Below, in pieces: positions 12,218 to 13,527 of a DNA stretch of 64,000 nt. Below the pieces are notes generated by a model, which ran no database searches, had not been told where the DNA came from, and worked only from the letters and a program-made list of their open reading frames with translations. Positions within the stretch are counted from its first letter, which is position 1; every line of letters begins with the position of its first letter. The stretch is from Rhizodiscina lignyota (lineage: Eukaryota): NCBI GenBank assembly GCA_010015805.1, contig ML978122.1, positions 2,700,453-2,764,452 on the forward strand, given 5' to 3'. The translations under genes and the position numbers were made by a program.

Positions 12218-13527
12218 ATGGTACGTTAAGTCAATTCTTTCATAAAGCCTGCATCTTGTTAGCACCAACTCCTACGATGCGAACGCCAACCATACCCTGA
12301 AGATGTAATGAAAATAGAGCTGTGTATGCGAATTCTAACTATAAGCAGAGCACCTCCACCGTGTCGGCGGCGACGCCGTCGAAGCATCCTTTCGAGCGCC
12401 GCGTCGAGGAAGTCAAACCTTCAAAGACGTACGTCGCCCTCTCCTTCCCATATTCACGCTCCTATGATGTTGTCAAAAACAAATGGGAATCTCTCTGAAA
12501 ATTCCTTGAAGAGAACTATAATATTTGTCCTTTCTGAACTGCACGTTACTCTCACGATATTTCATTTCCAGGTTGAAGAGATCTCCTCGTTGTACTGACT
12601 TGAAAAATCTGCCAAACAGAGATCTGAATGCCATCATCATGGACTACTTCATCAGCGAGGGCTATCCCGACGCAGCTCGCATGCTTGCGAAGGAGGCCAA
12701 CATTAAGCCTACAGCCGATGAACATTCGATCTCTGAGCGTGTTGCTATTCGCAATGCTATCCACTGCGGAGACATACAGTCAGCCATTGAACGCATCAAT
12801 GAGCTCAACCCACAGGTTTGTACGCCCTCTGCTTTGTCTCCCTCTGTAATACATGATTATCCAAGTTTCATGCACCACTCTTACACCTTCGGGTAATGGT
12901 GAACACGACTCACACTTCAGTCCTCAGTATGATTTATTTTTGCAATAATTACACAGCTGTACTTGACAATACTTGACAAACAATCTGAGATAGCTAACAG
13001 CCTCCTCACAATAGATCCTCGACTCCGACCAGACCCTCCACTTCTCCCTCCTCAACCTCCAACTAATCGAGCTCATCAAACCCGTCATCACCTCACAATC
13101 CGCCGATCCGACCCCCGCCCTCGACTTTGCCACGTCACAGCTTGCCCCACGTGTTTCTGTTAATCGCGAATTCCTCGAAGACCTTGAGCGCACAATGTCC
13201 CTTCTCATATTTCCACTGGAGAGCCTGCAGCCGCAGCTTGCCAGACTCTTACAGCCGTCTTTGCGCATCGAAGTCGCCAGCAAGGTCAACGAGGCGATCC
13301 TCCAGATGCAAGGTAAGCGACGAGAGGCGAAGATCAAGGACTTGGTACGACTTAGAGCTTGGGCAGAGAACAAGGCACGCGAATCGAAGAAGGATATTCC
13401 AGCGAAGTTGACTCTGGGTCTGGATGGAGACAAGGACCACAGGAGAGAGCATGAGGATGGGCTGGATCATGATGATGACGATGATGACGAAAGGCACGGG
13501 AATGGCGCAGATATCATGGTGCATTGA
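12218..13527 (+). CDS. GID8: GID/CTLH ubiquitin-ligase subunit (LisH-CTLH-CRA), GID8/TWA1 family
   Basis: Exons 12218..12220 (ATG only), 12349..12428, 12620..12815, 13015..13527 (263 aa). LisH DLNAIIMDYFISEGYPDAA; CTLH IRNAIHCGDIQSAIERINELNPQILD; CRA region VASKVNEAIL...LVRLRAWAE. Confidence 0.85.
12460..12541 (+). ncRNA. Intronic box C/D snoRNA, U79/SNORD79-like (LSU rRNA Am guide)
   Basis: In GID8 intron 2. Box C-like ATGATGT 12464-12470; guide TGGGAATCTC 12484-12493 complementary to conserved LSU GAGAUUCCCA; D' CTGA 12495-12498; C' TGAAGA 12507-12512; D CTGA 12534-12537. Confidence 0.8.
12850..12936 (+). ncRNA. Intronic box C/D snoRNA, U32/snR40-like (SSU rRNA Gm guide)
   Basis: In GID8 intron 3. 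Box C-like ATGATTA 12853-12859; guide CATGCACCAC 12869-12878 complementary to SSU GUGGUGCAUG; D'-like CTTA 12880-12883; ACC-TTCG-GGT hairpin; C'-like ATGGTGA 12896-12902; D-like ATGA 12929-12932. Confidence 0.7.

Follow-up and report, generated by a model that had tools for sequence, protein, structure and literature searches.

A conserved intronic box C/D snoRNA in a GID8-like gene is predicted to guide methylation of 18S G1271 and of LSU helix 47 in filamentous ascomycetes

Using a comparison of orthologous introns together with pairing against the rRNA of other fungi, our work here describes a box C/D snoRNA in intron 3 of a GID8/TWA1-like gene of Rhizodiscina lignyota, a feature that we regard as virtually certain to be real and whose two antisense elements correspond to two sites in rRNA. 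The stretch of DNA analysed, 64,000 nucleotides of one contig, is referred to as the window, and the features are collected in Table 1. We propose that splicing and trimming would release a double-guide C/D snoRNA from intron 3 of the GID8-like pre-mRNA and that this RNA would assemble with Snu13, Nop56, Nop58 and Nop1 on a C/D kink-turn whose stem II has U-A where G-C is usual. Its D' guide would then direct 2'-O-methylation of 18S G1271 (yeast numbering), while its D guide would invade the 3' strand of LSU helix 47 and direct methylation of A1474, close to where the peptide tunnel opens. To this reading as a whole, that of an intron-derived double-guide snoRNP for G1271 and A1474 and an orthologue of Neurospora crassa Nc CD55, we assign a probability of about 0.65. 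What carries it are properties that can be read directly from the compared sequences, namely conservation, complementarity, register and pair-preserving variation.

Table 1. Coordinates of the intron 3 snoRNA, its host gene and related features (window positions unless another locus is given)
Feature	Position	Strand	Remarks
Host gene, GID8/TWA1-like LisH-CTLH protein	12218..13527	+	exons: ATG 12218-12220, 12349-12428, 12620-12815, 13015-13527
Intron 3, snoRNA host, third intron of the gene	12816..13014	+	199 nt
Predicted mature box C/D snoRNA	12848..12935	+	~88 nt; ends inferred from usual trimming near C/D boxes
Box C ATGATTA	12853..12859	+	U for G at position 6; U6 in 48/48 cores
D' guide	12868..12878	+	11 bp with 18S; C12875 (+5) opposite G1271-equivalent; 10-mer in 48/48 cores
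Box D' CTTA	12880..12883	+	CATA in 34/48 cores; C1 and A4 invariant
Short D'-C' hairpin ACC-(TTCG)-GGT	12885..12894	+	3 bp, UUCG loop; dispensable
Box C' ATGGTGA	12896..12902	+	terminal GA invariant
D guide	12913..12927	+	13-15 bp with 3' strand of LSU helix 47, yeast 1471-1485; T12924 (+5) opposite A1474
Box D ATGA	12929..12932	+	A1 pairs with U6 of box C; ATGA 46/48, CTGA 2/48
U79/Nc CD14-like C/D snoRNA	12464..12540	+	in intron 2 (12429-12619), same host transcript
Afu_190 (RF01498) gene	L125 1439-1529; G000:C1 near 1793900	-	69.4 bits; 18S G562 guide

Results

Host gene and neighbouring snoRNA

The host exons encode LisH and CTLH domains, and the protein is identical to a database entry labelled Rhizodiscina lignyota and has one relative labelled glucose-induced degradation protein 8. 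Intron 3 runs from GT at 12816 through a branch-point-like GCTAAC at 12993-12998 to AG at 13014, with box C following the 5' splice site at a distance of 37 nt (range among the 48 cores compared below, 24-69 nt). The snoRNA of intron 2 has the same guide as Nc CD14 and scores 27.3 bits against SNORD79, under the Rfam cut-off. Since a U79-like guide motif lies upstream of the intron 3 snoRNA in 45 of 47 orthologous loci, the other two being too short, the GID8-like gene is host to a conserved snoRNA pair. A by-eye comparison of intron 1 in ten loci gave nothing in common that would point to a third snoRNA.

Several gene models and transcripts touch on these introns. In the public protein model P0001 the acceptor lies further upstream, which adds 16 residues (12572-12619) missing from every aligned homologue; it is probably a mis-called splice site and possibly an alternative acceptor. 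At another locus (L070, 391-399) a spliced transcript retains 8 nt ahead of the usual intron 3 acceptor, which suggests a frame-shifting alternative 3' splice site. Peptides derived from the snoRNA stand inside six of 120 database proteins (P0013, P0031, P0055, P0070, P0073 and P0107), so gene callers have read into the intron, and a Trichoglossum gene model holds at the intron 3 position the peptide TSVLSM, the translation of the D guide and box D and thus an indirect sighting of both.

Conservation in orthologous introns

Orthologous loci were sought in metagenome contigs, the query being an alignment of the upstream exon, which kept their choice independent of the intron; the best 80 of 241 confirmed loci were taken. 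Among these best 80, six represent spliced transcripts and another breaks off within the RNA; the full snoRNA arrangement is present in every one of the 73 informative introns (73/73). Three motifs were fixed in the search expression, yet no informative locus failed, so the expression exerted no selection. The comparison yields 48 distinct C-to-D cores of 72-87 nt, the window's own included. Across these, columns of the two antisense elements and the box cores show 83-100% identity, the majority of them 100%, and most columns of flanks and spacers ~30-60%; this conservation of the snoRNA elements is far above chance. The preliminary description had read an intronic C/D snoRNA at 12850..12936, and its reading is borne out: all the elements it named are in their places and kept in the 73 informative introns, and the intron alignment sets both antisense elements above the flanking intron.

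Some of the host proteins share 86-96% identity with named proteins of Thermoascus, Talaromyces, Penicillium, Mytilinidion or Pycnora, relatives that we take to be Eurotiomycetes or Dothideomycetes. The loci sampled lean towards close relatives of the query, and none of them has a Sordariomycete reference for comparison.

Box architecture

In stem II of the kink-turn the sixth nucleotide of box C is paired with the first of box D, so that a G-C to U-A exchange amounts to one compensated change. This pair is U-A in 46 of the 48 cores, with the GA cores of both boxes invariant. In two related cores (L033, 1740-1846; L040, 1739-1845) box D has reverted to CTGA and U6 of box C is still there, so that stem II contains a U-C mismatch; these two cores count against a strict C6/D1 requirement. 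Internally, the C-x-x-A of D' and the terminal GA of C' are invariant, which marks out an internal D'/C' motif. According to Canzler et al., 4.2% of fungal C/D RNAs have box D position 1 replaced, mostly by A (PMC5824354). Divergent D'/C' motifs are described as frequent and mostly active, one of those tested being inactive, and conserved arrangements of boxes and guides can lack activity (PMC3116282). All four boxes do deviate from consensus, as had been remarked, but the C/D deviation is a single compensated pair of the kind found in yeast snR41 and the D'/C' divergence is ordinary.

Between D' and C', a stem of at least 3 bp with varied sequence occurs in 33 of 48 cores, one clade has no stem, and RNAalifold returned no consensus secondary structure; the hairpin is real in those 33 cores but dispensable. 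Single-sequence folding of the snoRNA is unremarkable (z -0.09), as expected for C/D RNAs. Searched against Rfam, the 64-kb window gave no family at gathering score, and the only match over the snoRNA is snoMe18S-Gm1358 (19.9 bits, E 2.6, cut-off 50).

The D' guide and 18S G1271

The nuclear rDNA of the source organism was not found in the assembly, and pairing was thus assessed on the rRNA of other fungi, drawn from 37 eukaryotic rDNA contaminant loci in bacterial assemblies and Rfam-confirmed for the 8 sources scanned. These LSU loci (L086-L122) lie in bacterial and archaeal species-representative assemblies; among them is a fungal rDNA array of 24 kb that holds a group I intron (L095, L097, L101). 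Viral contigs gave no LSU motif match; they hold two SSU pieces of uncertain origin.

On the rRNA of other fungi both guides have at least 10 nt of complementarity ending 1 nt before D or D'. The D' guide, CATGCACCAC at 12869-12878 followed by T 12879, forms 11 bp with 18S and sets D'+5 on the G at position 1270 in L095. That G corresponds to yeast Gm1271, human Gm1328 and Arabidopsis Gm1275, and is given as methylated in all three (PMC8583080). The helix is statistically weak taken alone (at least 11 bp in 10 of 300 shuffles), so the case rests on invariance and on register at a known site. A pattern joining box C to the G1271 guide has one match in the whole genome, the snoRNA locus itself (one control hit).

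We consider it highly likely that the D' guide directs methylation of 18S G1271; the +5 register claimed earlier for it holds on the 18S of other fungi. The element could conceivably serve instead as an accessory to a nearby 18S modification such as cytidine acetylation, whose site presumably lies ~9 nt downstream of the G1271 target, a role that would suit the degenerate D'/C' motif and the classing of Nc CD55 in N. crassa as an orphan. We hold this to be highly improbable: the +5 register is exact, the site carries the methyl group in yeast, human and plant alike, the pattern has its sole genome match here, and there is the near-identical guide of fission-yeast snR40, with D' CTTA in two species. 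An extra-pairing element of the yeast snR40 type was considered and rejected: ACTCAC after C' is poorly conserved, and the 18S upstream of the target differs in L095 and L109.

The D guide and LSU helix 47

The best partner of the D guide (CTTCAGTCCTCAGT, 12915-12928, directly before box D) in fungal rRNA is CUUUGAGGACUGAAGU in the LSU core, with 13 bp at -21.3 kcal/mol (L095, L097, L120), a helix length reached in none of 300 shuffles; the window's guide extends to 15 bp on L086. Helix 47 is the best mature-rRNA duplex for all seven guide variants, at -14.7 to -21.3 kcal/mol against -11.6 to -16.9 kcal/mol elsewhere. With yeast numbering anchored on C1437, A1449 and G1450 in three yeast-like 25S contigs, D+5 falls on A1474.

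The helix with LSU begins at position 2 from box D, and every one of the 48 cores has U at +5. Over guide positions 2-14, four of five substitution types leave the pairing intact by exchanging G-U and A-U pairs (G to A opposite U, and C to U opposite G at three positions), and five positions opposite A or C never vary; a single homologue (L084) breaks the helix, adjoining the target. Because the homologues are related and independent substitution events few, this support is moderate. On the rRNA side, LSU pair 1457/1475 covaries fully, being C-G at 13 of the 37 loci and U-A at the other 24. Of the 48 guides, 40 place a C across from position 1475; this base suits helix 47 in its G form and would be mispaired with the A form of the yeast type. 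The D guide thus very probably pairs with the 3' strand of helix 47, to judge from these alignments. The preliminary description had seen in this element an orphan second guide: a conserved guide it is, but it is not an orphan.

That description had also pointed to a partial match with a variable-region stretch of LSU, ACUGAGGAC. Here the match reaches 11 bp with the yeast-like LSU L117 but only 9, 6, 6 and 4 bp in L086, L119, L120 and L095, the four other scorable fungal LSUs; it leaves the invariant 5' CTTC unaccounted for and is broken by common guide variants. We regard it as yeast-specific and largely refuted, with next to no chance of being the true partner.

Non-ribosomal targets for the D element, whether an mRNA, an snRNA or the anticodon loop of tRNA-Phe, are likewise unlikely, and we would give them only a slim chance. 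Exact 13-nt complements occur in the genome once beyond the locus itself and once in a second search, within long open frames, but about one such match per pattern is expected by chance in 33 Mb, and L001 has no Rfam match at E<=1. The tRNA-Phe loop, which we take to complement ~8 bases of the element, would leave invariant positions 3 and 5 unexplained, while helix 47 accounts for positions 2-14. A genome pattern search for tRNA-Phe gave no match and bears neither way on a tRNA target.

The main rival to methylation of A1474 is pairing without it, in which the D element would act on helix 47 as a folding chaperone that delays closure in the pre-60S particle, leaving G1271 as the only methylated site. 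The D-guide target strand is itself paired within rRNA as part of a stem, and C/D RNAs that do not methylate may have non-consensus boxes. Chaperoning would also agree with the rRNA maps considered below, where we found no report of methylation at A1474. It sits less well with the register of the helix, whose start at position 2 is the one classically used for methylation, with the invariant +5 U, and with yeast snR41, which methylates with an identical box pair. We judge that the D guide probably directs methylation of A1474 and that chaperoning alone is unlikely, if the least so of the alternatives.

A1474 in known methylation maps

We know of no methylation at A1474 in budding yeast. No report of one at this position came up in a full-text literature search, whose scope did not take in the Chaetomium thermophilum 2'-O-methyl table, the online tables of Canzler et al. 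or the Aspergillus fumigatus supplements. The C. thermophilum equivalent is A1457 (offset 17), four bases from pseudouridine 1453, with helix 47 near the tunnel exit (PMC12723226). In human LSU, where the equivalent is A2388 in current numbering, the list in PMC5597630 has nothing between Cm2365 and Am2401; the Arabidopsis list in PMC8583080 has Cm1479 (yeast 1469) and nothing at 1484, the counterpart of A1474. The N. crassa listing, which holds predictions only, has no A1455 methylation (PMC2780460), and the guide motifs were not found in the T. rubrum supplements.

A coincidence of numbering led us to consider equivalence with human SNORD68, whose target lies in the same LSU neighbourhood. 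SNORD68 acts at Am2401 (2388 in the old numbering), which corresponds to yeast 1487 and lies downstream of A1474 by 13 nt (PMC6124571); A1474 is thus not the SNORD68 site.

Discussion

By combining conservation of the guides with the behaviour of their rRNA partners, our study outlines how one intron could supply guides to both ribosomal subunits. We lean towards the view that a lineage-specific 2'-O-methyl at A1474 occurs in most filamentous ascomycetes, Aspergillus-like and Dothideomycete lineages among them, that it is absent from yeast, human and plant maps, eroded in Neurospora and guided by an uncatalogued family, and that the double 18S targeting of budding-yeast snR40 is split over two genes in these fungi. 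A published orphan snoRNA would thereby receive targets, its range would widen from one genus to several fungal classes, and a snoRNA family missing from Rfam would be added. The prediction of a methylation in helix 47 is specific and cheaply testable, and the region has been linked to the peptide tunnel's final constriction (PMC12723226). The proposal would also name the RNA responsible for Gm1271 in filamentous fungi, and suggests that where the CD_43/Afu_190 family was predicted to serve G1271, the prediction should go to the intron 3 snoRNA instead. Since the mechanism is ordinary C/D guiding, we see this as a solid specialist result and no new kind of system.

The closest published RNA is Nc CD55 (EU780979), which Liu et al. 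2009 (PMC2780460) cloned, verified by Northern blot, found to be intronic and described as an orphan; Canzler et al. 2018 describe it as restricted to Neurospora, and the original paper is the only one on it that our literature search found. Nc CD55 likewise has box C AUGAUUA and box D AUGA, the guide CAUGCACCAC, CACUUC before box D, and D' CAUA after G as in 9 of our 48 cores, and it is the single entry with that box C in the Neurospora list. By eye, the two thus have in common the rare box pair, the D' guide and the intronic position. CD14, which is U79-like, and CD55 are both intronic on chromosome IV (PMC2780460). Nc CD55 differs in being 137 nt long with a long D'-C' insert, and its D guide is cut to a 7-nt complement of the LSU site (by eye), from which we infer erosion in Neurospora. 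The intron 3 snoRNA would accordingly be an orthologue of Nc CD55 in which the D' guide is kept on both sides.

Yeast snR41 offers the nearest parallel for the boxes: it has the identical compensated pair of C ATGATTA and D ATGA, with an active D-adjacent guide for Gm1126 (PMC3116282; PMC4344503), while its guides and targets (18S 541 and 1126) are unrelated to ours. Vertebrate SNORD32 (U32), Drosophila snoMe18S-Gm1358 (RF00533) and plant snoR21 share the 18S target, and the RF00533 consensus holds an identical 10-mer guide. The intron 3 snoRNA falls outside SNORD32/snoMe18S-Gm1358 nevertheless, scoring 19.9 bits against 50 and differing in the LSU target of the second guide; that of SNORD32 is Am1524, unrelated to helix 47 (PMC5597630).

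Yeast snR40 (RF01201) also has a D' guide for 18S Gm1271, nearly identical in fission yeast. In budding yeast, however, the same element also guides Gm562 and the box D guide serves Um898 of 25S (PMC4344503). The intron 3 snoRNA, by contrast, forms just 6 bp at G562 (by eye, L095), and its D guide is unrelated to the 898 guide, so the earlier remark that the second guide is not that of yeast snR40 holds. With RF01201 there is no match at E<=10, and none at the gathering score: the G1271 D' guide is present, and the U898 D guide and the shared G562 guide are not. The snR40 alignment of van Nues et al. covers Saccharomycotina and Schizosaccharomyces only (PMC3116282). The label U32/snR40-like given to the intron 3 snoRNA is therefore apt for its G1271 guide but not for its family, there being no family at Rfam gathering score and the genome's snR40 relative being the separate Afu_190 gene. 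That gene is the genome's best snR40 match (28.9 bits, E 0.017). About 500 nt from it, on the opposite strand, lies an snR36-like H/ACA snoRNA (L125, 2055-2203, + strand; 47.6 bits, above cut-off). Afu_190 and its counterpart Nc CD43 are fungal C/D snoRNAs too, filed with snR40 (CD_43) by Canzler et al.; contrasting with the intron 3 snoRNA, Afu_190 is a separate gene with a guide for 18S G562. Judged by these guides, the two 18S jobs that budding-yeast snR40 performs with one element seem to be split between two RNAs in the source genome.
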